A stretch of 64,000 nucleotides of DNA, taken from the NCBI GenBank assembly GCA_963827755.1, contig CAWHCQ010000021.1, positions 105,428 to 169,427 of the forward strand, in the 5' to 3' direction. Under the pieces are notes generated by a model that ran no database searches, was not told the origin of the DNA, and saw only the letters and a program-made list of their open reading frames with translations. Both the position numbers and the translations under genes were made by a program. Source of the stretch: an uncultured Gammaproteobacteria bacterium (lineage in GTDB: Bacteria; Pseudomonadota; Gammaproteobacteria; UBA9214). The number at the start of each line of letters is the position of its first letter. The first letter of the stretch is position 1. Below, piece by piece: positions 1-13,800 of this stretch.

Positions 1-1123
1 GCATGTACTTGAACTGCAGGGTCACGGCGGCCCGGTGGTGATGAACCTGTTGCTCGCGCGCGTGCTGTCACTCGGCGCGCGCCCTGCCCGCCCAGGTGAA
101 TTTTCCGAGCGCGCGTTTTTGAATGACAAGCTCGACCTCGCCCAGGCCGAGGCGATTGCCGATCTCATCGACAGCGGCACTGCCCAGGCCGCACGGGCGG
201 CGGTGCATTCACTGCAGGGTGAATTTTCCGGGCGCGTGCATGCGCTGGTGGAATTGCTCACTCAAGTGCGCATGTACGTCGAGGCAGCCATCGATTTTCC
301 CGAAGAGGAAATCGACTTCCTCTCCGACACGGGTCTTGCGCAGCTGCTGGCTCGATTGCGGGCGGACTTTGATGCGTTGATCGCAGGCGCACAACAGGGC
401 TGCCTGCTGCGCGACGGCATGACGCTGGTGATTGCCGGACGACCGAACGCCGGCAAATCGAGCTTGCTGAACGCCCTCTCCGGCCGCGACGCGGCCATTG
501 TCACGGAAATTCCCGGCACCACCCGCGACGTGCTGCGCGAATACATCCAGCTCGATGGCCTGCCGTTGCATATCCTCGATACCGCCGGCCTGCACGACAG
601 CGACGACCCGGTTGAACAGGCCGGCATGCAGCGCACCCGCGCGGCGCTGGTACAGGCCGACCGGGTGTTGCTGGTCATCGACGACCAGCAGGGTTTTACC
701 GCGGCCGATGAAGCCATTCTCGCGCAGCTGCCGAAAAACGTGCCCGCGACCCATGTGTATAACAAAATTGATTTAACTGGCCGCAGTCCCGGCCTGGATA
801 CAGTGACCGGAGAACCCGTCGTCGCCCTTTCCGCACAGAACACTGCCGGGCTGGACGCATTGCGCGCCTACCTGAAACAGAGTATCGGTTACGCCGACCA
901 GGGCGAAGGCGCATTCAGCGCACGGCAGCGGCATCTCGACGTGCTCGAGCGCGCGCAGACGCATTTCGAAACCGGTGTCGCCCTGCTGGAAAGCCGGCGT
1001 GCCGGTGAACTGCTGGCCGAGGAGTTGCGCCTGGCCCAGCAGCGGCTTGGCGAGATCACCGGCGAGGTCAGCAGTGACGAACTGCTGGGCCGGATTTTCA
1101 GCAGTTTCTGTATCGGCAAGTGA
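1..1123 (+). CDS. mnmE: tRNA modification GTPase MnmE (5' end outside window)
   Basis: [46 protein letters not shown]-terminal FCIGK. Confidence 0.97.
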
Positions 1124-1178
1124 GGGTTGCGCCCTATCTGATGTATATTTAACCCGGCACATCATGGCGGAGGCCTTA

Positions 1179-1637
1179 ATGTCGGCAGCACTGCAAGCCA
1201 TACTGGACCACCCCGCTTTCCCGCAGCGCCATGCCTGGTGGCGCGAGGACTTTGGCCCGGGACAGGCCATCGTCGAGGAAAACCACCGCAGCCGCGACCT
1301 GTTCATGATTGAAAGCGGTGTCGTGCGCGTCAACAAGGACATCGCCGTCACCGAGGAGCGGCACATGCAATCGGGGCTGCTGGAGCTGAGCAAGGGCGAG
1401 ATCTTTGGCGAGCTGTGCCTGTTCGGCGATGTCGTGCGCAGCGCCTCGGTCGTCGCCCTGACGCGCGGGGTGTTGATCCATGTCGACGGCATCCTGCTGG
1501 CAAAATTCATGGACCAGCATGTCGAACAGGGTTATGCCCTGCTGAAGGAATTTTTCATCCACCATGCGGCCATGCTGAGCGATGGCAATGAACGCTACAG
1601 CGCGCTCTACGCCCGGCAATTGCTCGAGGATGACTGA
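1179..1637 (+). CDS. Stand-alone cyclic nucleotide-binding domain protein
   Basis: GEIFGELCLF...RSASV phosphate-binding cassette; no HTH; GGAGG 5 nt before ATG 1179. Confidence 0.8.
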   Translation: MSAALQAILDHPAFPQRHAWWREDFGPGQAIVEENHRSRDLFMIESGVVRVNKDIAVTEERHMQSGLLELSKGEIFGELCLFGDVVRSASVVALTRGVLIHVDGILLAKFMDQHVEQGYALLKEFFIHHAAMLSDGNERYSALYARQLLEDD

Positions 1638-1748
1638 CGCTGAACCGCGCTTGTGCAGCCCTGTCGAACGCCCGCCGCAACCGTCCCGGGCAAGCCCCGA
1701 AGGCACAAAATCATCAAAACACCAAATTTAGATACCACCTCAAAATGT

Positions 1749-1779
1749 AATATATATAATTGTATTTATTATATATATT
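1749..1779. promoter_or_regulatory. AT-rich 12-bp perfect inverted repeat, candidate operator
   Basis: AATATATATAAT-N7-ATTATATATATT upstream of the methyltransferase. Confidence 0.45.
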
Positions 1780-1808
1780 GTTACATATCCCCGTGAGTTT
1801 TTACGCGA

Positions 1809-2696
1809 GTGGCTGATCCAGAAAAAATGAGCTCGCGCGAGCTGGGGCTGGTGCTGGCGCAGCAACTGCTCGATGTCGAGGACCTGCACTACGGGTTATG
1901 GGACGCGGACCTGGCGCTGTCGCTCGCCAATGTGCCCGTCGCCCAGCAGCGTTACACCACCCTGCTGCTGGACCTGCTCGCACGGCTGCTGGCCGGTATC
2001 GAGCGGCCGCGCGTTCTCGATGTCGGCTGTGGCACCGGGCACATGCTGGAGCAGTTGCTGGCGCACGGATTCGCGGTTGACGCAATCAACCCGTCCGCGC
2101 ATCTGAATGCGCAGGTGCGCGCGCGGCTGGCGAAGCTCGATGCCGGTGCGACCCGCCTGTTTGAGTCCACCTTCGAGGCGCTGCCGGCGGACGCCTGCCG
2201 GCACCGCTATGACCTGCTGCTGTTCAGTGAAAGTTTTCAGTACATCCCGCTGCCGGAATTTTTTGCCAACAGCGCCCGCCTGTTGAAGACCGACGGTCGT
2301 GTAGTGATCTGTGATTTTTTCAAGACCGCCGCGCATTGTGACGGCGAGCCCGGCGACCGCAGTTTCAGTGGCGGCCACCTGCTCGACGACTTTTACGGGC
2401 GCGTCGCCGACGCCCCTTTTGAGATCGAACAAGATGAAGACCTCACCAGGCGGGTCAGCCCGAACATCGCCCTGCTCGATGAGTGGCTGACAGGGCGGCT
2501 GGCACCCGCCGCCGGGTCGATCGACCAGTACCTGCAGGGCGCCTACCCGAAGACGTCGGGCCTTTTGAAATGGCTGCTGCGTAAAAAGCTGGCGCGGGCC
2601 CGCTACAAGTACCTGTCCGGCAACCGCAGCCAGGCGGTGTTTGAGAAATACAAAAGCTACCGGCTGATCGTCCTGCGGGTTGGCCGGGGCGGGTGA
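1809..2696 (+). CDS. Class I SAM-dependent methyltransferase
   Basis: LHYGLW, VLDVGCGTG, FSESFQY motifs. Confidence 0.88.
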   Translation: MADPEKMSSRELGLVLAQQLLDVEDLHYGLWDADLALSLANVPVAQQRYTTLLLDLLARLLAGIERPRVLDVGCGTGHMLEQLLAHGFAVDAINPSAHLNAQVRARLAKLDAGATRLFESTFEALPADACRHRYDLLLFSESFQYIPLPEFFANSARLLKTDGRVVICDFFKTAAHCDGEPGDRSFSGGHLLDDFYGRVADAPFEIEQDEDLTRRVSPNIALLDEWLTGRLAPAAGSIDQYLQGAYPKTSGLLKWLLRKKLARARYKYLSGNRSQAVFEKYKSYRLIVLRVGRGG

Positions 2697-3070
2697 GTGG
2701 CGGGCATGCTGTATGCGGCGCCCGGTGAATATATAGGGTCGACTCAATATTTTTAGTCTGGCTACCTGTTAAACCGGCGGAATTTCGTGAAAATACGAGC
2801 ATTTATTGTTGTGGGCTAAAAATATATACATTACTATACTAAACAAGTTAAAGGATTATTATTAATACAGTTTCACCGGAAATATCTGCGGGTTAGCGGA
2901 CGTCTCGGCGGACAATTAAACCCATCCAGGTCGCTTTTGGCGATAAACCACAGAAAAATATGTGTTTATACCGGGGTTGGCCGCCGCGTCAAGTGAGCAA
3001 CCATTTTATATATATTAATCAGTGCTTTATAGATATATACTTCGATATAAATTTAGGGTAAACCATACTT

Positions 3071-3739
3071 ATGACTGAATCCATACGCCCGACGCTGCGC
3101 GAACGCAAGTTCGCCAAGACCCGCCTTGCCCTGGCCGAGGTGGCCGCACAGCACATGGAGATGGCACCCTTCGAGACGATTTCCGTGAAGGCGCTGTGTG
3201 AACGGGTGCAGGTTTCCGAGGCGACCTTCTTTAATTACTTCCCGAAAAAAGACGACCTGATTGTCTACCTGGACCATCTGTGGACGCTGGAGCTGAACTG
3301 GTATGGACGCCAGTCGGCAGAACAGCATGCCGGACTGGCGGTGATCGATGCCATGTTTCGTTACACCGCCATCCAGGTGCAGAAAAAGCCGGGGCTGATG
3401 GGGGAGATCATCGCCCACGAGGCGAGGGCAAGAACGCGCAGTGCCAACCCGAACATTACCCGGGCAGAGCGCATGATGGCGTTCCCGGACCTGGACGGCA
3501 TTGGCGAGATGGCGGATGACAGCCTCGAGCATATTCTGCGTGCGGCGCTGCAACAGGGCATCGACCGCGGCGAGTTGCCGGCCAATACCGCGGTGACGGC
3601 CGCCATGGTCGGTCTGGTGTCGATCTTCTACGGCGTACCGCTGGCCCTGCAGTACACCAACCCGGCGGCGATCGGTGCGATGTATCGCCAGCAACTGGCA
3701 TTGCTCTGGGAAGGCCTGCGGGCCGTGTCTGCTAAATAA
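3071..3739 (+). CDS. TetR/AcrR family regulator
   Basis: N-terminal LRERK...SEATFFNYFPKKDDL HTH. Confidence 0.9.
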   Translation: MTESIRPTLRERKFAKTRLALAEVAAQHMEMAPFETISVKALCERVQVSEATFFNYFPKKDDLIVYLDHLWTLELNWYGRQSAEQHAGLAVIDAMFRYTAIQVQKKPGLMGEIIAHEARARTRSANPNITRAERMMAFPDLDGIGEMADDSLEHILRAALQQGIDRGELPANTAVTAAMVGLVSIFYGVPLALQYTNPAAIGAMYRQQLALLWEGLRAVSAK

Positions 3740-3943
3740 TCCTGAATGGAGGCTCGGCCGCCGATGCGGTCGCATTGCGGTTGAATTGACGCGTGCAGGA
3801 GCGCATCGCAAGCGCAATTGACTCTGCTACATCGTAAAACAGGCCTTCCAGATGAAGGGCTCGCAAGGGGCGGTTGCGGTATATTATGCGCCTGGCCTGA
3901 AACACGGGTTACACCATCAAGCTTGCAGTGAGGTGCGGCGACC

Positions 3944-4615
3944 ATGAAGGAACTCGAGTTCTCGACAAAATACGACCCTGATCATTCAAAAAACTATTAC
4001 TTCAAGCACAAGCAGGGGTTACGGCGCCGGTTGACCACCTGGAGAGAGGTGTCGCTTGCCAGAAAGGCGCTGCAGATTGCCGGCGACCCGCGAACGATTC
4101 TCGACCTTCCCTGCGGTGCCGGCCGGTTCTGGCCGATGCTTGCCGAGGACCCCGAGCGCACGCTGTTTGCGGCGGATAACAGCCAGGCGATGATCGATGT
4201 CACTCAAAAATTCCAGGACAAGGCGCTCAGTGCCCGGTTTAAATGTTTCCAGACATCCGCGTTCGCCATCGATATGCCGGATGCGAGTGTTGATAACATT
4301 TTCTGTATGCGCCTGCTGCATCACATCGCGGAAGAAGCGGATCGTCTTGCCATCCTGAAAGAGTTTTACAGGGTCACAAAAAACTCGGTTTGTCTCTCGA
4401 TGTGGGTCGATGGCAATCTCCAGGCCAGCAGGAGAAAACGGGTTGAAGCCAGGCGTTCGGCCTCGAGAATCAACAACCGTATCGTGATCACGGCAGAACA
4501 GGCGGAGCGGGAGTACCGGCAGGCCGGTTTTCGCATCCTCGACCACCTCGACCTGTTGCCGGGGATATCCATGTGGCGCTTTTACATTCTCGAAAAGACG
4601 CCTGCCGGGACGTAG
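3944..4615 (+). CDS. Class I SAM-dependent methyltransferase
   Basis: ILDLPCGAGRF, FCMRLLHH. Confidence 0.88.
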   Translation: MKELEFSTKYDPDHSKNYYFKHKQGLRRRLTTWREVSLARKALQIAGDPRTILDLPCGAGRFWPMLAEDPERTLFAADNSQAMIDVTQKFQDKALSARFKCFQTSAFAIDMPDASVDNIFCMRLLHHIAEEADRLAILKEFYRVTKNSVCLSMWVDGNLQASRRKRVEARRSASRINNRIVITAEQAEREYRQAGFRILDHLDLLPGISMWRFYILEKTPAGT

Positions 4616-4667
4616 CGGGGACGCAGACTGCCCGTTCTTCAACGGCCCGCAGGAAGCGGATAGTCAA

Positions 4668-5741
4668 TCAGGAACCGGTCACCAGGTACTGGTGCTGCGT
4701 GCCCTGTTTCCAGTGGATCACATTAGCCATCGCCCTGCTGGCATAGATTGTCCCGTCTTTTGTAATCATCAGTATTTCGTGGACATCCATTTTGTCTGCG
4801 ATCATCTTCCAGTCCCTGGTCCCGGCGATGAGCAGCGTGGTGGCGGCGGCACTTGCGACCATGGCGCTTTTATGGGTCACGGTTACTGACTGTATATCCT
4901 TCACCGGCAGGCCGGTGCGCGGGTCGACGATATGCCGGTACACGCGACCTGTTTTTCCGGCCGAATGATTGAATGCGCGCACCGTGACCACTGCCTTGTC
5001 ATCGATGTTTTCCAGTGAGGCTATCAATTCTTTCCCGAAGCGGCCGGGAATGCCGATCCACCAGTCATGATCGCCCCGCGTACCGATCGTGCGGACATTG
5101 CCGCCGATATCGATCATGGCATTGGTTACGCCGAGCGCGGCAAGTCGTTCGATGCCTTTATCCAGCGCAACGCCGCGGATGATGTCGGTGAATTCCAGTT
5201 TTACCAGCCGGTTCCGGCTCGAGACCCTGTTGCCCTTGATAACCAGGTCATCGATCGACGGCTTCTGCGAGATTATTACTTCGACACGCTCGTTGACGAG
5301 ACGCTGGACTTCATCCGGGTAGGGGGATTCACCGCATTCATCCTTGTCGCAATGAAATTCCCAGAAGGCCGTTAGCTGGCCCGTGGCAGGGTTGAACATT
5401 CCATCACTCAGGCTGGATAGTTTGCCGGCATTGCTGATCAGTTCAACGAGGGTGTCGCTGACCTCAATGGATTGCCCCTTACTGATGGCCTCGTTGAGGC
5501 GATGCAATTCGCCTTCCAGCTCGAAGGTGTAGCCGATGGAATCAAGCACCTGCAGGTCTTCTTCCACGCTGAGCGCAGCTGTTCGTGCTGCATCCGTTGG
5601 CTGACCGATAATGGTTATCTGCACAAATGTCCCGAGGGCATTTAACCGGTATTCGAAAGCGTGACCGTTTCGATCGCAGCTTGTAAGCAGGAACAGCATG
5701 GTTAAAGCCACGAGGGTGGCGAGGGTGAGCTTGTTTTTCAT
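4668..5741 (-). CDS. apbE: ApbE-like FAD:protein FMN transferase lipoprotein with atypical active-site motifs
   Basis: LTSC lipobox, ALGT, GMFNPATG, IDIGGN, WWIGI, HIVDPRTG. Confidence 0.8.
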   Translation of the reverse strand: MKNKLTLATLVALTMLFLLTSCDRNGHAFEYRLNALGTFVQITIIGQPTDAARTAALSVEEDLQVLDSIGYTFELEGELHRLNEAISKGQSIEVSDTLVELISNAGKLSSLSDGMFNPATGQLTAFWEFHCDKDECGESPYPDEVQRLVNERVEVIISQKPSIDDLVIKGNRVSSRNRLVKLEFTDIIRGVALDKGIERLAALGVTNAMIDIGGNVRTIGTRGDHDWWIGIPGRFGKELIASLENIDDKAVVTVRAFNHSAGKTGRVYRHIVDPRTGLPVKDIQSVTVTHKSAMVASAAATTLLIAGTRDWKMIADKMDVHEILMITKDGTIYASRAMANVIHWKQGTQHQYLVTGS

Positions 5742-5790
5742 GAAGACACCGGATGGTTTTATGAAGGCGTTGATCATATGCATGCAGTTC

Positions 5791-6051
5791 TCAGAAATAG
5801 CCGGTGTTGATCCACATGTGGACCATGATGCTGGCTGTATAGCCTAAAGCTATTACCGGTGTCCAGCGCAAATGTCCGAAGAAGGTATACATGCCGCGCG
5901 ACAGGTAACCAACGGTGTGCGCGTCAGGTCAAGGCCATGGGCGCCCGTGGCTTCAGCGAGCCGGCAGCAATGCCGGAACAAGCAGCACAGCACGCCGGCC
6001 AGCGCGGTGAGACAGATGCTTGATCGTGAGTGTCTGTGTAAGGAATGGCAT
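5791..6051 (-). pseudogene. nhaD: Internally deleted NhaD Na+/H+ antiporter remnant
   Basis: Signal-like N-terminus and LDLT.HTVGYLS joined to GMYTFFGHLRWTPVIALGYTASIMVHMWINTGYF-stop; small frameshifts. Confidence 0.7.
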
Positions 6052-6062
6052 CTTGGTTCTTC

Positions 6063-8021
6063 TCAGAAAAATACATTCATTGTGAGCAGCATGACGACGA
6101 GGAACAGCAGCGTCATGATGCCGCCCGCACGCATGAAATCGGGTACCCGGTATCCGCCCGGCCCCATCAGCAGTGCATTCACCTGGTGTGTCGGGATCAA
6201 AAAGGAGTTCGATGTGGCAATGGCCACGGTCAGGGCAAACACGGCGGGGTCTGCACCTGCGGGAATCGCGAGATTGACGGCAAGCGGTACCAGCAGCACC
6301 GTCGCGCCGACATTCGACATTACCAGCGTGAAAAAGGTCGCCAGCACGGCGAGCGCCGCCTGCAATACCCAGACGGGTACCTCACCCAGTATTTCGAGCG
6401 TCTGTTGTGCTATCCACGCAGCGGTCCCGGTATTTTCAACGGCCATGCCCAGCGGGATCAGGCTCGCCAGCAGGAACACGGTTTTCCAGCTGACGGCTTC
6501 GTAGGCCTCGTCGATACTGAGCACGCCGGAGAGCACCATGCCGAGTGCGCCGGTCAGCAGGGAAACCGACAGGCGCAGGTCGGAGAACAGTACCAGGGAC
6601 AATGCCACGAGAAAGAAAAACAGGGCGTGACCGACTTTTTGCGGGCGGGTCTCCTCGCGTGGATACTCGGTGGTTACGACGACAAAGTCACGGTTGGATT
6701 CGAGTCGTGCCAGTGCATCCCAGGTGGTATGCACCACCAGGGTATCGCCGGCCTGCAGGGGCATGTTGCGTATGTCTTCACCTTCGCGCATCGTCTTGCC
6801 GGCGCGGTGCAGGCCGATCATGGCGAGGCCGTATGTTTTGCGCATCCATACATCACGTGCACTTTTGCCGATCAGCTGCGAGCCGGGCGGGATCACGACC
6901 TCGGCAACACCGGAACGGCTGGAGGAGAGTGATTCGCTGAAGTTGTTCAGGCCCGCAAGGCGTATCAGTCGATACTTGCCGACGAACTTTTCGACGTCCA
7001 GCGGCGCTGCCAGGATGCCGAGCACCATGTTGGCCTCGATGCCGACGTCGCGGGCCAGCGCACCCGGGCCGATGCGGGTTTCCTTGTCGCTGCGCAGGGT
7101 GGCAATGATGCGTATATGCCCGGAGCTTTCAACATCGTCGAACATGAGGCCGACCAGCGGGCTGTCGGCCGGCACCTTTATTTCAAACATCGCGTAGTCG
7201 ATTCCGTAGACATCCTTGAAATAGCTCATGGTGTTGGAGGCGACGGTGCTGCTTTGGGACTGACCGCTCGGCAGGACATACTTGCCAAGCAGGAGAAAAT
7301 AAATAATTCCCGTGGCCACCAGTGCCAGGCCGACCGGGGTGACGCTGAACAGGCCGAAGGCGCTCATTTTCTGGCCCGGCGGCAACGCCTGGTTGGACGT
7401 CATCATCAGGTCGTTGAGCAGGATCAGCGGGCTGGAGCCCACCATGGTGACGGTGCCGCCGAGGATTGCGCAAAAGCCCATCGGCATGAGCAGGCGTGAC
7501 AGGGGCAGGCCCGAGCGCGCCGAGATGCGGCTGACAACCGGCAGGAACAGGGCGGCGGCGCCGACGTTTTGCATGAAGCTCGAGATGATGGCAACGGTGC
7601 CGGAAATCAGCGGGATGATGCGTTTCTCCGTCCTGCCGCCGCGCTTGAGGATAATCCTGGCCACGGTATTCATGACACCCGTTTTATCCAGGCCCTTGCC
7701 GACAATCATCACGGCAATGATGGAGATCACCGCGTTACTGGAAAACCCGTCGAACAGGTGTTGTGCGGGTACAAACGGATGATTGAGCCCGAACAGGGGC
7801 CCGATAAGCGTCATCAGTCCGAGCAGCACCATGATGCAGATGGCTGCAACGTCGACGCCGACAATTTCAAAGACAAAAAGATAGATCGTCAGCAGCAGGA
7901 TGCACGAAACCCAGGCGACTTCCGGCGTCGGAACGACACCGATGAGCAGATAGCCGATAATCAGAAAGACGATGGCGCCGACAACGGGCTTGATCGAAGC
8001 CTTTATTGATGATCTGCTCAC
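6063..8021 (-). CDS. SLC13 family permease with TrkA-C domains
   Basis: SSFMQNVGA, VGSSPLILL, internal TrkA-C-like segments, MSNVGAT, THQVNALLMGPGGY. Confidence 0.9.
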   Translation of the reverse strand: MSRSSIKASIKPVVGAIVFLIIGYLLIGVVPTPEVAWVSCILLLTIYLFVFEIVGVDVAAICIMVLLGLMTLIGPLFGLNHPFVPAQHLFDGFSSNAVISIIAVMIVGKGLDKTGVMNTVARIILKRGGRTEKRIIPLISGTVAIISSFMQNVGAAALFLPVVSRISARSGLPLSRLLMPMGFCAILGGTVTMVGSSPLILLNDLMMTSNQALPPGQKMSAFGLFSVTPVGLALVATGIIYFLLLGKYVLPSGQSQSSTVASNTMSYFKDVYGIDYAMFEIKVPADSPLVGLMFDDVESSGHIRIIATLRSDKETRIGPGALARDVGIEANMVLGILAAPLDVEKFVGKYRLIRLAGLNNFSESLSSSRSGVAEVVIPPGSQLIGKSARDVWMRKTYGLAMIGLHRAGKTMREGEDIRNMPLQAGDTLVVHTTWDALARLESNRDFVVVTTEYPREETRPQKVGHALFFFLVALSLVLFSDLRLSVSLLTGALGMVLSGVLSIDEAYEAVSWKTVFLLASLIPLGMAVENTGTAAWIAQQTLEILGEVPVWVLQAALAVLATFFTLVMSNVGATVLLVPLAVNLAIPAGADPAVFALTVAIATSNSFLIPTHQVNALLMGPGGYRVPDFMRAGGIMTLLFLVVMLLTMNVFF

Positions 8022-8120
8022 GTGCTACTCCGGTAAAAATATATGCACGGCAAAACCTTTATATGGCATTACTGTGCGGGACTGACCTGCAGGATATACG
8101 GTCCTGGCGACCGCGGTAAT

Positions 8121-8426
8121 TCAGGCGGGGTGAGGCGTCGCGGGCGGACCGTGGAGGATAAGGCTGGAGTACGCGTCACTGTTTGCAAGCGGTGATAATC
8201 CATTGCCATGAATTGCCGGGCCGGGGAATGGCGCTACGCTTGCAGGCAGGCACGGCACGCGGGATACAGTCTTGTCATCATCATCGGATGTGTCGGTTGC
8301 TTCTGACTTGATTTCTGTTTCCACCGGCGTGCACTCGGCCAGGCTGTTAACGCTGGCAGACAGGAAGACGGCCGTCAACAGCGCCAGCCACAGCCAGTGC
8401 GAGGATTTTTTACGGTCGGCAGGCAT
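8121..8426 (-). CDS. Small exported leader-like protein ending ILHGPP (candidate arrest peptide)
   Basis: Signal peptide, acidic linker, HGPP 6 codons before stop; lies between a sigma70 promoter and the SLC13 gene. Confidence 0.6.
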   Translation of the reverse strand: MPADRKKSSHWLWLALLTAVFLSASVNSLAECTPVETEIKSEATDTSDDDDKTVSRVPCLPASVAPFPGPAIHGNGLSPLANSDAYSSLILHGPPATPHPA

Positions 8427-8476
8427 CAGTCGATTTTGCTCTCGGAACCGGTTTGCGGGGGCTTCTTGTCGATAAG

Positions 8477-8505
8477 AATATAACAAGATAGTGATTTAGC
8501 GTCAA
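8477..8505 (-). promoter_or_regulatory. sigma70 promoter for leader ORF and SLC13
   Basis: TTGACG-N17-TATATT on the minus strand. Confidence 0.7.
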
Positions 8506-8658
8506 AGCCGGCTGTTTCTCTGCGCGCGCTATCCGCTAACGGACCCGGGTGGACAGCGGTGCTGCGGCGGCTGACTGGATGTGGCGGGGCCCGGTGGTGT
8601 GGCCACACCACGGCGGGATTTGCCCCTTTCAGGGGTTGCTGACTTGAGCGCCGGGCTC

Positions 8659-9258
8659 CTAGCGGACGTTGAAAGAGTCCCGCGCACTGTCGAGCGATTC
8701 CTGCCAGGCCCGGGTGAACCGTGGCCACCAGTCCGGTTGCCTGTCCTGCAACCATTCGCGGGATGCCTCGATGAACCAGCGGCCGATGGCGGGCAGGTTG
8801 TGCTTCCTGAAGTGTGCAATACGCTTGCCGATGCGCGCACTCAGCGGCGGCCTGGCAAGCATTTCCAGCAAGGTGTATTCGCGTTGCTTGGCGGCCCAGA
8901 GTTCACTGTTGATGTTGCGTTCCAGTTTCAACAGACGTTGCTTCAGCTGTTCCAGTTCCAGGTTCGGGGTAGTTGCCTGGTTTGTTTGCACCCGCATCTT
9001 GATGCGTTTTTCCAGCAGCGCGACGCGCTGCTGCAGGTTTTCAAGATCAATCGGGCCGCGCTGTGCCGGCATATGCACGGTGCCGCTCTTGACCGGAAAG
9101 ACCCTGGTTCCCGGAATGGCCGTGCCGGCGGATTGCCGGGCCGGGCGCGCCGGGGGGGCAGGGTGTGTGCCGGGTCGGCCATTGGCCCGGGCGGCGATAT
9201 GGGCTGTCTCCTGTGGATCGGTATCGCTGTCAGTTTGGCCAAATTCCAGAAGCCTCAT
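8659..9258 (-). CDS. Hypothetical coiled-coil protein divergent from mnmG
   Basis: 3' part of the long antisense ORF; heptads LENLQQRVALLEKR and LEQLKQRLLKLER; Trp-rich C-terminus. Confidence 0.6.
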   Translation of the reverse strand: MRLLEFGQTDSDTDPQETAHIAARANGRPGTHPAPPARPARQSAGTAIPGTRVFPVKSGTVHMPAQRGPIDLENLQQRVALLEKRIKMRVQTNQATTPNLELEQLKQRLLKLERNINSELWAAKQREYTLLEMLARPPLSARIGKRIAHFRKHNLPAIGRWFIEASREWLQDRQPDWWPRFTRAWQESLDSARDSFNVR

Positions 9259-9414
9259 GCCTTTTACCCTATCTTGTGTGATTTCCGGGATTCTACCACA
9301 ATATGTACCAATATATAGTCTTTTGAAGCGCATTGATCCGCGACAGCCGCCGATTACCTGAATCGCGGTGAACGGCGTAGAATCGCGGTTAATTTTTTTC
9401 AGCAGGCCTGGACA

Positions 9415-11307
9415 GTGACGGCACCCGCAAAAACATATGACGTGATCGTGGTCGGCGGCGGCCATGCAGGTACCGAGGCCGCGCTGGCGGCGGCGCGGTC
9501 GGGTGCGCGCACCCTGTTGCTGACACACAACTTCGAGACCCTCGGGCAAATGAGCTGTAACCCGGCCATCGGCGGGATCGGCAAGAGCCACCTGGTGAAG
9601 GAAATCGATGCGCTTGGCGGGTTGATGGCGCTGGCCGCCGATCGGGCCGGAATCCATTTCCGGGTCCTCAATGGCAGCAAGGGCCCGGCCGTGCGCGCGA
9701 CCCGGGCCCAGGCCGACCGGATGCTCTACCGGCAGGCAGTGCGCCGGCACCTGGAACACCAGCCGGGCCTGCAATTGTTCCAGCAGGCCGTCGATGACCT
9801 GATCGTCGAGGGCGAGCGGGTCAGCGGTGTCGTTACCGCCATGGGGCTGCGTTTTTTTGCGCCCACCGTGGTGCTGACGGTCGGCACTTTCCTCGGTGGC
9901 CGCATTCATATCGGCAAGACCAGCACGGCCGGTGGCCGTGCCGGTGATCCGCCGGCCAATGCGCTGGCCGCGCGCTTGCGTGAACTGCCGCTGCGTGTCG
10001 AGCGCCTGAAGACAGGTACGCCACCGCGTATTGACGGGCGCAGCATTGATTATTCGCAGCTGCAGGCACAACCCGGTGACCGGCCATTGCCGGTGATGTC
10101 CTTTCTCGGCAGGCGCGAAGACCATCCGCGGCAGCTGGATTGCCACATCACCCGTACCAACAGCCGCACCCACGACATCATCCGTGCCGGGCTGGCGGAC
10201 TCGCCGATGTACAGCGGCGCCATCCAGGGGACGGGACCGCGGTATTGTCCGTCGATCGAGGACAAGGTGGTGCGCTTTGCCGACCGGGACAGCCACCAGG
10301 TGTTCGTTGAGCCGGAAGGGCTTGATACCCATGAGGTTTATCCGAACGGTATTTCGACCAGCCTGTCCTTTGCCGTGCAGGAACAACTGGTGCATTCCAT
10401 GGCCGGGTTTGAATCCGCCCATATCACGCGCCCCGGCTATGCCATTGAATATGATTTCTTTGATCCGCGTGACCTGAAGCACTCGCTCGAGACCAAGGTC
10501 ATCAGCGGCCTGTATTTTGCCGGGCAGATCAATGGCACCACCGGCTACGAGGAGGCCGCCGCCCAGGGCCTGCTGGCCGGACTGAATGCCGCGCGCCGCA
10601 CGCGGGACCTGGAACCCTGGCTGCCAGGGCGCGACGAGGCCTATATAGGGGTGCTCGTTGACGACCTGGTGACGCTCGGCACCAGCGAGCCCTACCGGAT
10701 GTTCACCAGCCGCGCCGAATACCGGCTGCTGTTACGCCAGGATAATGCAGACCTGCGCCTGACAGCGGTCGGGCGCGAAATGGGGCTGGTCGACGACCAC
10801 CGCTGGGCGCATTTCAGCGCCAGGCGCGAGGCCATTGAAGCCGAACAGCAGCGCCTGCAAACCCTGCTGGTGCGCCCCGACACGCCGGCGGCGGACGGCC
10901 TCGCGGAAATACTCGATAAACCGCTGCGCCGCGAACAATATGCCCATGAATTGCTGCGTCGCCCGGAAGTCAGCTACCGTGCATTGACAGCGATTGAAGG
11001 CTTCGGACCCGGTGTTGCGGATGAGCAGGTGGCCGAGCAGGTGGATATCCAGGCAAGCTACTCCGGCTACCTCGATCGGCAGCTGGCAGAGATCGAGCGG
11101 GCGCATCACAACCGCGAACAACCACTGGCGGTGAATTTCGATTACAATGCAGTCCGGGGGCTTTCCAATGAAGTCTGTGAGAAACTGCTGGCTGTCAGAC
11201 CGGAGACCATTGGTCAGGCTGCACGGATTCCAGGCGTCACACCGGCGGCGGTATCCCTGTTGCTGGTTCATTTAAAAAAACACCGGGCGTTGGCAAAAAC
11301 CGCCTGA
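9415..11307 (+). CDS. mnmG: tRNA uridine modification enzyme MnmG (GidA)
   Basis: [43 protein letters not shown]. Confidence 0.98.
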
Positions 11308-11331
11308 ACAGGGCCACTACCATGACAGGTC

Positions 11332-12033
11332 ATGTATACCGGACTTTATAACCGTAAACGCAAGGGACGCAGCAACGACGCTGCCGACCCTGGTGAGTTG
11401 CTTGAAAACGGTATCTACGAGCTGGGTCTGGAAGAGCGCCTCGCCGGTGACAATCTGCTGATGGAGTATGTTACCGAGCTGCTCAACTGGAACCGTGTCT
11501 ATAACCTGACATCGGTTCGCAAACCTGCCGACATCATCACCCGTCATATCCTCGATAGTCTGACACTTGTTCCGCACCTGAACGGCGAGCGTATACTCGA
11601 TGTGGGTACCGGCGCCGGCCTGCCGGGTATCGTTCTTGCAATTGCCTGTCCGGAACTTGAATTCGTATTGCTGGACAGCAGCAGCAAGAAATTGCGCTTC
11701 GTGCAGCAGACGCTCGGCATATTGCAGCTGGAGAATGTTACGCTCGAAAACTGCCGGCTGGAGGAATACCGGCCGGATGTCCTGTTTGACACCATTATAT
11801 GCCGCGCCTTTTCAGACCTGCCGGATTTCTACCGCCATAGCGCTCACCTGTGCGCTGACAACGGCCGCATGCTGGCCATGAAAGGCGTGTACCCGATGAC
11901 CGAAATCGAGTGCCTGAATGACAAGACCCTGATTGATGATGTCGTCGCACTGAAGGTGCCCGGCCTGGATGCCGAGCGTCACCTGGTAATCATGCATGCG
12001 GCGCAGGCAAACCAGGCCGCAGGTACCCAGTAA
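11332..12033 (+). CDS. rsmG: 16S rRNA m7G527 methyltransferase
   Basis: WNRVYNLT, HILDSL, DVGTGAGLPG; synteny. Confidence 0.95.
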   Translation: MYTGLYNRKRKGRSNDAADPGELLENGIYELGLEERLAGDNLLMEYVTELLNWNRVYNLTSVRKPADIITRHILDSLTLVPHLNGERILDVGTGAGLPGIVLAIACPELEFVLLDSSSKKLRFVQQTLGILQLENVTLENCRLEEYRPDVLFDTIICRAFSDLPDFYRHSAHLCADNGRMLAMKGVYPMTEIECLNDKTLIDDVVALKVPGLDAERHLVIMHAAQANQAAGTQ

Positions 12034-12036
12034 CCC

Positions 12037-12846
12037 GTGGGACAGATACTCGCAGTCACGAATCAGAAAGGCGGTGTTGGCAAGACCACCACCAGCGTCA
12101 ACATGGCCGCTTCGCTGGCCGAGACCGGCAAGCGCGTCTTGCTGATAGATCTCGATGCACAGGGCAATGCGACCATGGGCAGCGGTATCGACAAGCATGA
12201 TGTCGAAAAGACCGGTTACGACGTGCTGATGGACCACGCGGAAGTGCGCGACGTCACGCTGCATGCAAGCAGTGCCGGCTATGACCTGCTGCCGGGCAAC
12301 AGTGACCTGACAGCCGCCGAGGTCGAGCTGCTGAACAAGGACAACGCCGACCGCCGGCTGCGCTCTGCCCTGACCTATGTGCAGAATGACTATGATCTGG
12401 TGATCATCGATTGTCCGCCGTCGCTCAGCATGTTGACGATCAATGCGCTGGCGGCTGCGCACGGCGTTCTCATCCCGATCCAGTGTGAATACTATGCGCT
12501 GGAAGGTTTATCCGCACTGCTGGATACGGTGGAAAAGGTGCGCGACAACATCAACCCGGAACTGGAGATAGAGGGCCTGTTGCGCACCATGTACGATGCG
12601 CGCAATAACCTCGCCAATGACGTGTCCGCACAATTGCAGCAGCATTTTGGCGACAAGCTGTACCGCACCATAATTCCGCGCAACGTGCGCCTGGCAGAGG
12701 CACCCAGCCACGGCATGCCGGTCATCCGTTATGACAGGGGCTCGCGCGGTGCCATGGCCTATCTTGCGCTCGCCGGCGAATACAACCGGCGCCATCCCTC
12801 GGCAAACGTGGTGCGGGAAACGCAGACTGCCGGCAAGACAGCCTGA
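12037..12846 (+). CDS. parA: Chromosome partitioning ATPase ParA/Soj
   Basis: NQKGGVGKTTT, DCPPSL, QCEYYALEG. Confidence 0.96.
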   Translation: MGQILAVTNQKGGVGKTTTSVNMAASLAETGKRVLLIDLDAQGNATMGSGIDKHDVEKTGYDVLMDHAEVRDVTLHASSAGYDLLPGNSDLTAAEVELLNKDNADRRLRSALTYVQNDYDLVIIDCPPSLSMLTINALAAAHGVLIPIQCEYYALEGLSALLDTVEKVRDNINPELEIEGLLRTMYDARNNLANDVSAQLQQHFGDKLYRTIIPRNVRLAEAPSHGMPVIRYDRGSRGAMAYLALAGEYNRRHPSANVVRETQTAGKTA

Positions 12847-12894
12847 TCGCGCAGTTCAAACCTGTAGTCGTCAATCATTGAAACGGTAACCGAA

Positions 12895-13800
12895 ATGACA
12901 GCAAGAAAACGTGGATTGGGCAGGGGGCTGGATGCCTTACTTGGTTCGGCATCGCGCCAGCCAGATACGGCGGCGGAGCTCAAGGCGGTGCCGGAGACGG
13001 TTGTTGCCGGCCCGCCTGCAGACGGTACCCTGTGCGCATTGCCGGTTGATGTCATTCAGCGCGGCGAGTACCAGCCGCGCGTCGACATGCACCAGGAGTC
13101 ACTCCAGGACCTGGCGGATTCCATTGCCGTGCAGGGTGTCGTGCAGCCCATCGTGGTGCGCACTATCGGCGAAAACCGCTACGAGATTGTTGCCGGCGAG
13201 CGCCGCTGGCGTGCCGCGCAAATGGCCGGACTGCACGAAATCCCGGCAGTGGTGCGCGAGGTGGATGACCGTTCCGCGATTGCCATTGCACTGATCGAAA
13301 ATATCCAGCGTGAAAACCTCAACCCGCTTGAAGAGGCGCGCGCACTGGCGCGGCTCATCGATGAGTTTGAACTGACGCACGAACAGGCCGCCGCGGCCGT
13401 CGGTCGTTCACGCGCGGCCGTCTCGAACCTGTTGCGCCTGCTGGATCTCGATGACGGCGTCAAGGTTTTGCTGGAACGCGGCGAACTTGAAATGGGCCAT
13501 GCACGCGCCCTGCTGGCACTGGCCGGCGCACGCCAGGTGGAGGCGGCCCGGCAGGTGGTTGCGCGCGGCCTGAGCGTGCGCGCGACCGAGGGGCTCGTCA
13601 GGCAGCTGCAGCAAAAACCGGCCAGCCGGACGACTCACGCCAGGCCGAAAGACCCGAATGTCCAGAGGCTGGAGGCCGACCTGTCTGACAAGCTCGGTGC
13701 CAGCGTCGTGCTGCGCCAGGGCAAGGGCGGCAAGGGCAAGCTGGAAATCAGCTACAACAGCCTCGATGAACTCGACGGCATTCTCGAGCATATCCATTGA
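12895..13800 (+). CDS. parB: Chromosome partitioning protein ParB
   Basis: GLGRGLDAL, AGERRWRAA, ENIQRENL. Confidence 0.96.
   Translation: MTARKRGLGRGLDALLGSASRQPDTAAELKAVPETVVAGPPADGTLCALPVDVIQRGEYQPRVDMHQESLQDLADSIAVQGVVQPIVVRTIGENRYEIVAGERRWRAAQMAGLHEIPAVVREVDDRSAIAIALIENIQRENLNPLEEARALARLIDEFELTHEQAAAAVGRSRAAVSNLLRLLDLDDGVKVLLERGELEMGHARALLALAGARQVEAARQVVARGLSVRATEGLVRQLQQKPASRTTHARPKDPNVQRLEADLSDKLGASVVLRQGKGGKGKLEISYNSLDELDGILEHIH

Follow-up and report, generated by a model that had tools for sequence, protein, structure and literature searches.

A conserved short leader ending in HGPP, a candidate ribosome-arrest peptide, precedes a permease gene in uncultured marine-sediment Gammaproteobacteria

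The 64,000-nucleotide (nt) stretch of contig CAWHCQ010000021.1 (assembly GCA_963827755.1, an uncultured gammaproteobacterium) that we analysed, referred to here as the window, contains a short open reading frame (ORF) followed by a gene for a permease. The ORF, which we call the leader, has a signal-peptide-like N terminus and carries the tetrapeptide HGPP close to its end, and every feature of the locus is on the minus strand in the given coordinates (Table 1). The original prediction for this locus described a secretion-monitoring arrest peptide that controls an SLC13 transporter; the promoter, the 101-amino-acid (aa) ORF with ILHGPP six codons before its stop and the 99-nt spacer that it named are all present. 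The promoter is the sole promoter-like site on the minus strand between positions 7500 and 9500, and on both strands of this region two such sites were found, compared with 0.8 expected from shuffled sequences.

Table 1. Features of the leader-permease locus in the window
Feature	Position	Strand	Remarks
Sigma-70-type promoter, TTGACG-N17-TATATT	8505..8477	(-)	10 of 12 matches; TG before the -10 hexamer
Leader ORF, candidate arrest peptide	8426..8121	(-)	ATG at 8426, 101 codons, TGA at 8123..8121
Signal-peptide-like N terminus, residues 1-30, MPADRKKSSHWLWLALLTAVFLSASVNSLA; Glu31 next	8337..8426	(-)	sequence inspection
C-rich, G-poor stretch at the presumed arrest site	8121..8187	(-)	45% C and 21% G in the window
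Conserved C-terminal module, residues 83-95, SDAYSSLILHGPP	8142..8180	(-)	HGPP at 8153..8142
Presumed P-site Pro codon; presumed A-site Pro codon	8147..8145; 8144..8142	(-)	analogy to ApdA/ApdP (PMC10951233)
Six-codon tail ATPHPA, between Pro-Pro and stop	8124..8141	(-)	sequence variable
Leader-permease spacer		(-)	99 nt in the window
Hairpin 1, GCGGTC-GCCAG-GACCGT	8114..8098	(-)	6 nt past the stop, 33 nt past the first Pro codon
Spacer beyond hairpin 1	8022..8097	(-)	AU-rich; includes the poorly conserved hairpin 2 and GGAG at 8031..8028
Permease gene, 652 aa, candidate regulated gene	8021..6063	(-)	GTG start at 8021; two TrkA-C domains

Inspection of the leader sequence showed a basic, K/R-rich n-region, a hydrophobic core and S-L-A ahead of E31. 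The peptide reads MPADRKKSSHWLWLALLTAVFLSASVNSLA and then ECTPVETEIKSEATDTSDDDD..., contains Cys at residues 32 and 59 as well as an acidic run, DTSDDDD, and ends with ...NSDAYSSLILHGPPATPHPA. AlphaFold2, run with a 32-row alignment, predicted a single helix at residues 7-31 with a predicted local distance difference test (pLDDT) score of 81-94 and no other secondary structure; across residues 31-90 the ten-residue block means were 48-66. This prediction agrees with a signal peptide that leads into an unstructured chain. The leader had no match among the Pfam or NCBIfam families, and Pfam searched at E-values up to 1 returned three chance-level hits. The permease matched the Pfam families CitMHS (3.9e-73, 246.9 bits), TrkA_C (1e-12, two stretches) and Na_sulph_symp (9.7e-12, 45.1 bits); the CitMHS and Na_sulph_symp scores pass their cutoffs, and the curated DASS model TIGR00785 scored 104.4 bits, under its cutoff of 198.6. 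Judged by these matches, it is best described as an ion-transporter-superfamily permease of the CitMHS/DASS type with two TrkA-C domains. A literature search on the function of TrkA-C, DASS and YfbS proteins found nothing relevant.

The leader is conserved in related bacteria. When 61 related genomes were searched in translation, 11 further genomes of the same genus proved to have an open frame of comparable length (E<1e-3), each time directly 5' of the same permease, and the 12 best-matching genome loci contained no internal stops. The 12 aligned leaders are 23-48% identical to the window copy, with M1, E31, SDAY and LHGPP invariant; E31 is invariant in the 12 leaders of type A (defined below), not in the wider leader set. 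The start codon and the length are kept, full-length members having about 97-107 aa. Conservation is confined to the signal peptide and the C-terminal SDAY(P/S)SxILHGPP, whereas the middle is low-complexity, indel-rich and divergent; the only other semi-conserved part is an acidic segment past the predicted cleavage site, moderately conserved as AE.Q..E.EL. The two Cys of the window leader are not conserved in the orthologues. Among 27 distinct nucleotide versions, the invariant residues are encoded by varying codons (Asp by GAC or GAT, Ala by GCG, GCT, GCC or GCA, Tyr by TAC or TAT, Gly by GGT, GGC or GGA, and the first Pro by all four of its codons), and this synonymous variation in the motif argues for selection on the peptide rather than on an RNA motif. 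By this pattern of conservation, the 101-codon ORF is a real, conserved gene.

Some codons of the arrest module are used unevenly. The Ser of SDAY is AGT in 27/27 versions, a codon with a share of 13% in the window's genome; the second Pro, at the presumed A-site position, is CCC or CCT in 27/27 and never CCG, the codon for 54% of Pro residues in that genome; and the first Pro is the rare CCA in 16/27, compared with 10%. These oddities, with usage compared with the window's genome alone, could reflect a preference for a particular tRNA-Pro or RNA pairing.

A profile built from 18 leaders and searched against 1.84 billion representative proteins recovered only 34 cluster representatives (E up to 1e-3). 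The motif [H/R][G/A]PP is present 2-12 residues from the end in 32 of the 34 (26 HGPP, five RGPP and one HAPP), and the two representatives without it are a 79-residue protein whose match stops two thirds of the way through the profile and one protein with an N-terminal match only. HGPP and RGPP thus interchange inside one leader family. The residues just ahead of the motif vary (IL, TL, IT, IS, AI, IV or AV before H, and I or N before R). A nine-residue context 5' of the motif is kept in the HGPP leaders; the RGPP leaders are without the SDAY context, in agreement with the reported ability of RGPP to stall behind many upstream sequences (PMC12992588). The tail after the motif has six residues in 23 and seven in six of the 32 motif-bearing representatives, and its sequence is not conserved. 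In three metagenome variants the stop comes one codon past Pro-Pro, right after PPA, with the nucleotide distance to the hairpin downstream kept.

Two ways in which the ORF or its motif could have arisen by chance were weighed against these data. That the ORF is a chance frame on top of a conserved non-coding RNA leader would be in keeping with the lack of a Pfam or NCBIfam model, with the outcome of a word-based protein search using the single leader, in which the window's own protein was the lone match, and with a leader start that has no clear Shine-Dalgarno (SD) sequence. Such a frame would not be expected to stay open in the 12 best-matching loci with its start and length kept, to hold invariant residues under changing synonymous codons, or to be predicted by gene callers in 34 cluster representatives, and we regard this explanation as almost certainly wrong. 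As for the motif, 28 of the 17,396 six-frame ORFs of 50-250 aa in the window's genome have [RHQ][AG]PP in their last 16 residues and only two of these also have an N-terminal hydrophobic segment, the window leader being one; its conservation settles the matter against a chance origin. The other ORF (G000 contig C12, minus strand, 11364..12098 in reverse-complement coordinates) encodes 244 aa and ends with ...MMQAPPGAYQSGAGR.

The order to which the window's genome belongs comprises uncultured marine-sediment bacteria, with 54 species genomes in one family and six genera. Orthologues of the permease (identity of at least about 69%) occur in about 30 of these genomes, and 900 nt 5' of each were scanned; 28 of the 30 loci were evaluable, the remaining two having either no N-terminal hit or no upstream DNA. 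A leader ending in xGPP lies directly 5' of the permease in 18 of the 28 loci and is absent from 10. Thirteen loci carry a type A leader, with ...SDAY(P/S)SxILHGPP followed by six codons and a spacer of about 99-112 nt; four (G035, G029, G002 and G036) carry a type B leader, with I/N-RGPP followed by seven codons and a spacer of about 207-210 nt; and one (G006) is intermediate, with HGPP, seven codons and a 217-nt spacer. The loci without a leader comprise two (G022 and G010) with a clean deletion of about 330 nt, two with a different upstream gene, and six from a clade with about 70% permease identity, in which all six evaluable loci are leaderless. The original prediction had proposed to look for a terminal (R/H)(G/A)PP in the ORFs upstream of the permease orthologues, and in those that have the leader the motif is indeed kept while the middle diverges. 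In the two deletion loci (L050 in G022 and L052 in G010), the body of the leader, the motif and hairpin 1 are gone, and the promoter, the leader ATG with its first codons, and the SD-GTG of the permease are kept. These are natural leader-less alleles, and the leader behaves as a removable cis module.

At the permease start, CYGGAGT-N6-GTG is conserved in the orthologues, and the spacer of about 100 nt and the GTG start codon are kept across them (GTG in 12/12 loci). Upstream of the leader, a TTGACA-N17-TATATT-like site is found 65-115 nt 5' of the ATG in 15 of the 18 orthologous loci, whereas a promoter-like site within the spacer is found in one of the 18. This distribution suggests that leader and permease share a conserved promoter 5' of the leader, and it argues against an independent sigma-70 promoter for the permease, the arrangement that the original prediction had singled out as incompatible with its proposal.

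Metagenomes were scanned with the 12-row leader alignment, which gave 24 loci, 20 of them with at least 400 nt past the leader. In 19 of the 20 the same permease follows about 98-115 nt past the leader; since several of these contigs also figure among the genome contigs, the counts of 19/20 and 18/28 are not independent. The exception (L076, 688-3061) has downstream a gene of the Na+/Pi-cotransporter family (PF02690, 4e-50) instead of the TrkA-C permease. It keeps a promoter, TTGACA-N17-TATATT, a leader ending with ...DSDAYSSFILHGPPATHHPV, and the same hairpin past the stop; its spacer is 283 nt long and includes a long GC palindrome, and its SD region differs from that of the permease loci. 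Since promoter, leader and hairpin are kept at L076, the block behaves as a module that is able to precede another permease, from a family named as Na+-coupled. A ZnuA-family gene lies 5' of the module at this locus. Type B loci L048, L057, L061 and L072 have a GC-rich, structured spacer of about 210 nt, with a predicted energy of -88 to -103 kcal/mol over about 255 nt, and a gene of the SulP/STAS sulfate-permease family 5' of the leader was confirmed for the G035 locus (by Pfam on its L042 copy).

The most regular RNA feature of the locus is hairpin 1. Of 31 distinct sequences, 29 have it at a distance of 31-35 nt from the first Pro codon, and the other two have wobble or compensated versions of it. 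Its predicted energies are -5.0 to -11.2 kcal/mol, most of them -7.5 to -9.5. When the spacer alone was folded for 28 distinct sequences, hairpin 1 was the only consensus structure, with all six pairs formed in 28/28 and two compensated pairs, both in L087. The hairpin is followed by a T-run (at least 5 T in 8 nt) in 26 of the 31 sequences, the window having only 3/8; the four type B RGPP loci have a GC-rich hairpin past the stop and no evident T-run, as read by eye from the printed folds and not counted. Hairpin 2, in the 8060..8028 region, was set aside as a conserved element: about 70-90% of cells are paired for seven of its eight candidate pairs, the innermost pair forms in 6/28 sequences, it is conserved only in part and it does not appear in the RNAalifold consensus. 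The pairings of the original prediction (ATTAC..GTAAT, and CGTGC/GCACG around the GGAG) do exist in the window but are in neither RNAalifold consensus, and on a reading of the alignment blocks, without a dedicated pair count, they seem not to be kept in the orthologues; hairpin 1 shares only GCGG with them. The 67-nt zone around the presumed arrest site contains more C than G in 18/18 loci (C 28-51%, G 16-28%), whereas the leader body and the spacer are balanced.

A stalled ribosome covers about 15-17 nt past its P-site codon, the toeprint distance. Since hairpin 1 is 31-35 nt away, a ribosome stalled at the motif cannot melt it. Two other schemes involving this hairpin were rejected. The first, a three-segment switch derived from the minimum-energy fold of the window, would have the His-Gly-Pro codons (ACGGUCC) compete with the 5' arm of the hairpin for its 3' arm; it was dropped because the compensated hairpin of L087 (ACAGCC/GGCTGT) cannot pair with the His-Gly-Pro codons. 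The second, melting of the hairpin by a ribosome at the stop codon, fails for the three variants with a one-codon tail.

Several published systems provide a frame for interpreting these features. The RAP/P sequence of ApdA and ApdP blocks peptide-bond formation to Pro-tRNA, with the Arg side chain in a pocket of 23S rRNA (PMC10951233). An 'RQH family' of R/Q/H-A/G-P-P motifs was described 5' of sec and yidC genes, with HGPP among the query motifs (Fujiwara et al. 2024, PMC10987492). Random-library screens in E. coli also yielded HGPP as an elongation staller, with upstream sequence modulating the effect (Sakiyama et al. 2021, PMC7897499; PMC12992588); the screens themselves are those of Tanner 2009 and Woolstenhulme 2013, as summarised in PMC7897499 and PMC12992588. 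According to Fujiwara et al. (EMBO J 2025, PMC12992588), RGPP arrests most robustly and does so behind many upstream sequences. The same paper (Dec 2025) places RAPP and RGPP near the C terminus of small secretory proteins 5' of many non-Sec genes; in its accessible text, the survey covers RAPP and RGPP only, with TonB receptors, YcnI, PCu(A)C, PepSY and DsbA/thioredoxin as gene groups.

The leader described here has the features by which RAPP-like leaders were defined (PMC10987492): a co-oriented short ORF upstream of the gene, an N-terminal localisation signal and a conserved [R/Q/H][A/G]PP near the C terminus. In place of the secA, secDF or yidC gene that belongs to that definition there is a permease, or the Na_Pi_cotrans gene in L076. 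We consider it probable that the leader is a RAPP-like ribosome-arrest leader that controls the permease. In the original prediction HGPP was such an arrest variant; the motif, the layout and the conservation fit this view and make an arrest-type leader likely, but 'secretion monitoring' is an assumption that we do not endorse. Stalling itself, its release, and the route and sign of control are what we infer from this resemblance.

The mechanism that we favour would run as follows. The leader would be cotranscribed with the permease from the conserved promoter 5' of the leader. After ...SDAYSSLILHG-Pro has been made, the bond to the next Pro-tRNA would be blocked, and the ribosome would pause with the first Pro codon in the P site. 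The signal peptide lies about 65 residues ahead of the motif and would thus be outside the ribosome when arrest occurs; about 60 residues, the signal peptide included, would have emerged, and an event on the emerged chain would set the length of the stall. Such an event could be a pull by the Sec machinery, as for SecM or VemP, or the acidic segment could fold or bind a ligand. The state of the stall would then be passed on to the permease gene.

Three routes for this last step were ranked. The first, which we put forward tentatively, resembles those of CruR and TnaC: the stalled ribosome would cover the C-rich, G-poor zone and deny Rho access during the time that RNA polymerase spends at the conserved hairpin and the U-rich site, and arrest would mean ON and release would mean termination. 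In CruR of Bordetella pertussis, copper releases the arrest and transcription terminates, the signal peptide is not needed for release, and C outnumbers G in the rut region of cruR (PMC9426467); by analogy, the C>G zone of our loci may serve as a Rho loading site. This route was ranked first because it covers more of the features than the others do, namely a hairpin in both leader types with or without a T-run, the independence from SD and distance seen at L076, and the C>G zone. In the second route, which is rather doubtful, arrest would free a GGAG/GTG that is able to pair with the Leu-His-Gly-Pro-Pro codons, and would again mean ON. In the third, which we think unlikely, the hairpin and its T-run would form an intrinsic attenuator that a close-following ribosome suppresses, and arrest would mean OFF.

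A number of observations weigh against the arrest reading or against one of its routes. Ten of the 28 evaluable permease loci, among them all six of the clade with about 70% identity, have no leader, which is thus dispensable. A search for RNA sequencing runs containing this sequence found none. No clear SD sequence was found within 25 nt of the ATG at the leader starts of the 18 loci; the leader may be initiated on an AU-rich 5' untranslated region of about 40 nt. For the attenuator, the stem is weak, and the low T count of the window and the type B loci without an obvious T-run also speak against it. As for the Rho route, the Pro, Ser and Tyr codons by themselves account for part of the C-richness.

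The evidence on unmasking of the permease start bears on the second route and also on a distinct explanation, a SecM-type translational switch. Here, a ribosome stalled on the Leu-His-Gly-Pro-Pro codons would free the GGAG-GTG, and Sec export would release the stall and let the start close again. In the RNAalifold consensus of 13 orthologues, the Leu-His-Gly codons pair with the CGUGAG that surrounds the start codon, and GGAG pairs with the second Pro codon; in this long-range helix 95.9% of cells pair, the one-sided changes are all wobbles, and there is one compensated pair (CUC/GGG, in G021/G018). The conserved GTG start and spacer length are also compatible with such a switch, as is the restriction of the second Pro to CCC or CCT, the third base of which would pair with a G of GGAG. 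However, the lone compensated pair comes from two close relatives and counts as one event, and the helix appears in only some of the minimum-energy folds of single sequences. Accessibility of the SD-start region, measured as the partition-function unpaired probability with a 30-nt stall footprint masked, was on average 0.33 in the free RNA, 0.34 in the stalled state and 0.31 with the ribosome at the stop codon (17 loci). Native codons compared with about 3,072 synonymous recodings had a median rank of 0.32, with 1/21 below 0.1; the SD complementarity thus follows from the amino acids, any coding of His-Gly-Pro-Pro being inherently anti-SD-like. Coupling of the stall to the permease by unmasking of the ribosome-binding site accordingly failed both the accessibility and the recoding tests, and these results count equally against the second route. 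Further, L076 keeps the leader and hairpin with a different SD region 283 nt away, the type B spacers are about 210 nt long and GC-rich, and induction of a polytopic membrane protein while Sec fails would make little physiological sense. We consider the SecM-type switch quite unlikely.

An inverted logic was also considered, and we find it improbable. Placed before permeases of families that are named as Na+-coupled anion symporters, namely the TrkA-C permease and in one lineage a Na/Pi cotransporter, the leader would monitor export or the ion-motive force, and efficient, ion-driven export of the acidic leader would free the HGPP stall and turn the permease ON. The freed ribosome would trail RNA polymerase and override the hairpin and U-run 33 nt further on, whereas weak export would leave a parked ribosome, a formed hairpin and terminated transcription. 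If true, this would be a negative-acting arrest peptide that works through uncoupling of transcription and translation and tunes sodium-coupled uptake to membrane energetics.

The ORF might instead encode a functional small secreted or periplasmic protein, for instance an accessory protein of the permease, with the C terminus as a binding epitope and the Pro-Pro pause incidental. Small transporter subunits exist, and the signal-peptide-like N terminus, the moderately conserved AE.Q..E.EL segment and the tight linkage to one transporter family would suit such a protein. Nonetheless, AlphaFold2 predicted nothing beyond the signal helix, with the low pLDDT at residues 31-90 noted above, and the middle of the leader is rich in indels and low in complexity. 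What is conserved corresponds to the published arrest consensus [RQH][AG]PP, in which H/R and G/A are the only exchanges; the SDAY context is missing from RGPP members and three variants are truncated right past PPA. Moreover, the leader also precedes the unrelated Na/Pi cotransporter gene and has been cleanly deleted in two lineages. In view of these data, a small functional protein is a distinctly improbable explanation.

It was further considered that the GPP sequence is a generic polyproline pause, a slow spot dependent on elongation factor P (EF-P) that reports EF-P activity or translation capacity. Gly before Pro-Pro is a classic EF-P-dependent context, and the frequent rare CCA at the first Pro would agree with a slow spot. 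A plain polyproline pause, however, needs no His or Arg at position -3, which is strictly kept (32/34), while the RAP/P mechanism does need this residue for the Arg pocket (PMC10951233). Nine more upstream residues are conserved in the HGPP type, and EF-P is reported not to relieve arrest at RAPP and RGPP (PMC12992588). This explanation appears very improbable.

Compared with ApdA, ApdP and SecM, the RAPP-like leaders of secA, secDF and yidC, the family is alike in its upstream ORF in the same operon, its localisation signal, its divergent body, its [R/Q/H][A/G]PP near the stop and its lineage-restricted, patchy distribution. In contrast to them, it precedes an ion-coupled permease, once a Na/Pi cotransporter, and no export factor; HGPP is the main form and not a rare variant; the module SDAY(P/S)SxIL is new; and sequence homology stops at the four-residue motif, arrest in the present case being a prediction. 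A monitor of the SecM, VemP or MifM kind feeds back on its own export factor, whereas the gene presumably controlled here is no export factor.

VemP of Vibrio is an export monitor that switches SecDF paralogues with Na+ availability. Like the present candidate, it comes from marine Gammaproteobacteria and combines a signal peptide with an arrest site at the C terminus; its arrest sequence and target class are different. By analogy with VemP, one may speculate that the targets, both from families named as Na+-coupled symporters, reflect a link between export efficiency and sodium energetics.

CruR (Bp2923, DUF2946) served as the lead model because it is the only experimentally dissected case of the wider use of such leaders (PMC9426467). 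It too is an exported leader with a C-terminal arrest-type motif and a non-export transporter target, and it likewise has a C>G stretch at the leader 3' end and an intergenic site for possible RNA polymerase pausing. The window leader is nevertheless no member of the DUF2946/CruR family that the original prediction cited for its architecture: it has no match to the DUF2946 profile (PF11162) and no CxxC metal site about 45 residues before the motif. Here the motif is HGPP or RGPP and is followed by six or seven residues, in CruR it is RAPP followed by three; and the target here is an inner-membrane permease, that of CruR a TonB-dependent receptor. The concept is the same as that of the upstream ORFs surveyed in PMC12992588, and RGPP members of our family fit the criteria used there, whereas HGPP lies outside that survey as described in the accessible part of the paper. 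The synthetic HGPP and RxPP stallers from E. coli libraries share the motif but are artificial, and in the natural family described here HGPP is dominant.

Three things are new in these data: a leader family without a database model, HGPP as the dominant motif with a context of its own, and the target class. The general concept of RAPP-like leaders before diverse genes has already been published (PMC12992588). The original prediction took the SLC13 target to be a class not known to be described for such leaders. No paper joining arrest peptides with SLC13 was found among those that could be searched, and 'SLC13' had no hits in the supplementary text of PMC12992588, a supplement that is only partly readable, so that absence from its tables is not established; on the other side, RAPP/RGPP leaders of non-Sec genes are on record in that paper and HGPP was a query in PMC10987492. 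If the arrest reading holds, this would be a natural arrest-leader family in which HGPP is the working motif and SDAY(P/S)SxIL is its own tunnel segment, and stall-based control would extend to inner-membrane ion-coupled permeases. With the concept published, the gain would be incremental unless the output logic proves unusual. The natural variants (HGPP, RGPP, HAPP, short tails, deletions and the target swap) are convenient for studying how the -3 residue and context affect stall strength, and also for studying how a stall is transmitted to the next gene.

Some neighbouring genes complete the description of the locus. An ApbE gene (4668..5783, minus strand) comes after the permease; ApbE was examined as a conserved operon partner, with a link to Na+-NQR, and dropped, being linked in only 6/30 orthologous permease loci. 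Between the leader promoter and mnmG there is a coiled-coil-looking ORF (8659..9300, minus strand) with no Pfam match. The minus-strand ORF 8659..10482 overlaps mnmG (9415..11307, plus strand) and is probably spurious beyond about 9300. The content of window positions 1..13800 suggests a region beside a replication origin: mnmE (35..1123) is the one gene backed by Pfam, and the names of mnmG, rsmG (11332..12033), parA (12037..12846) and parB (12895..13800) were read from the translations.

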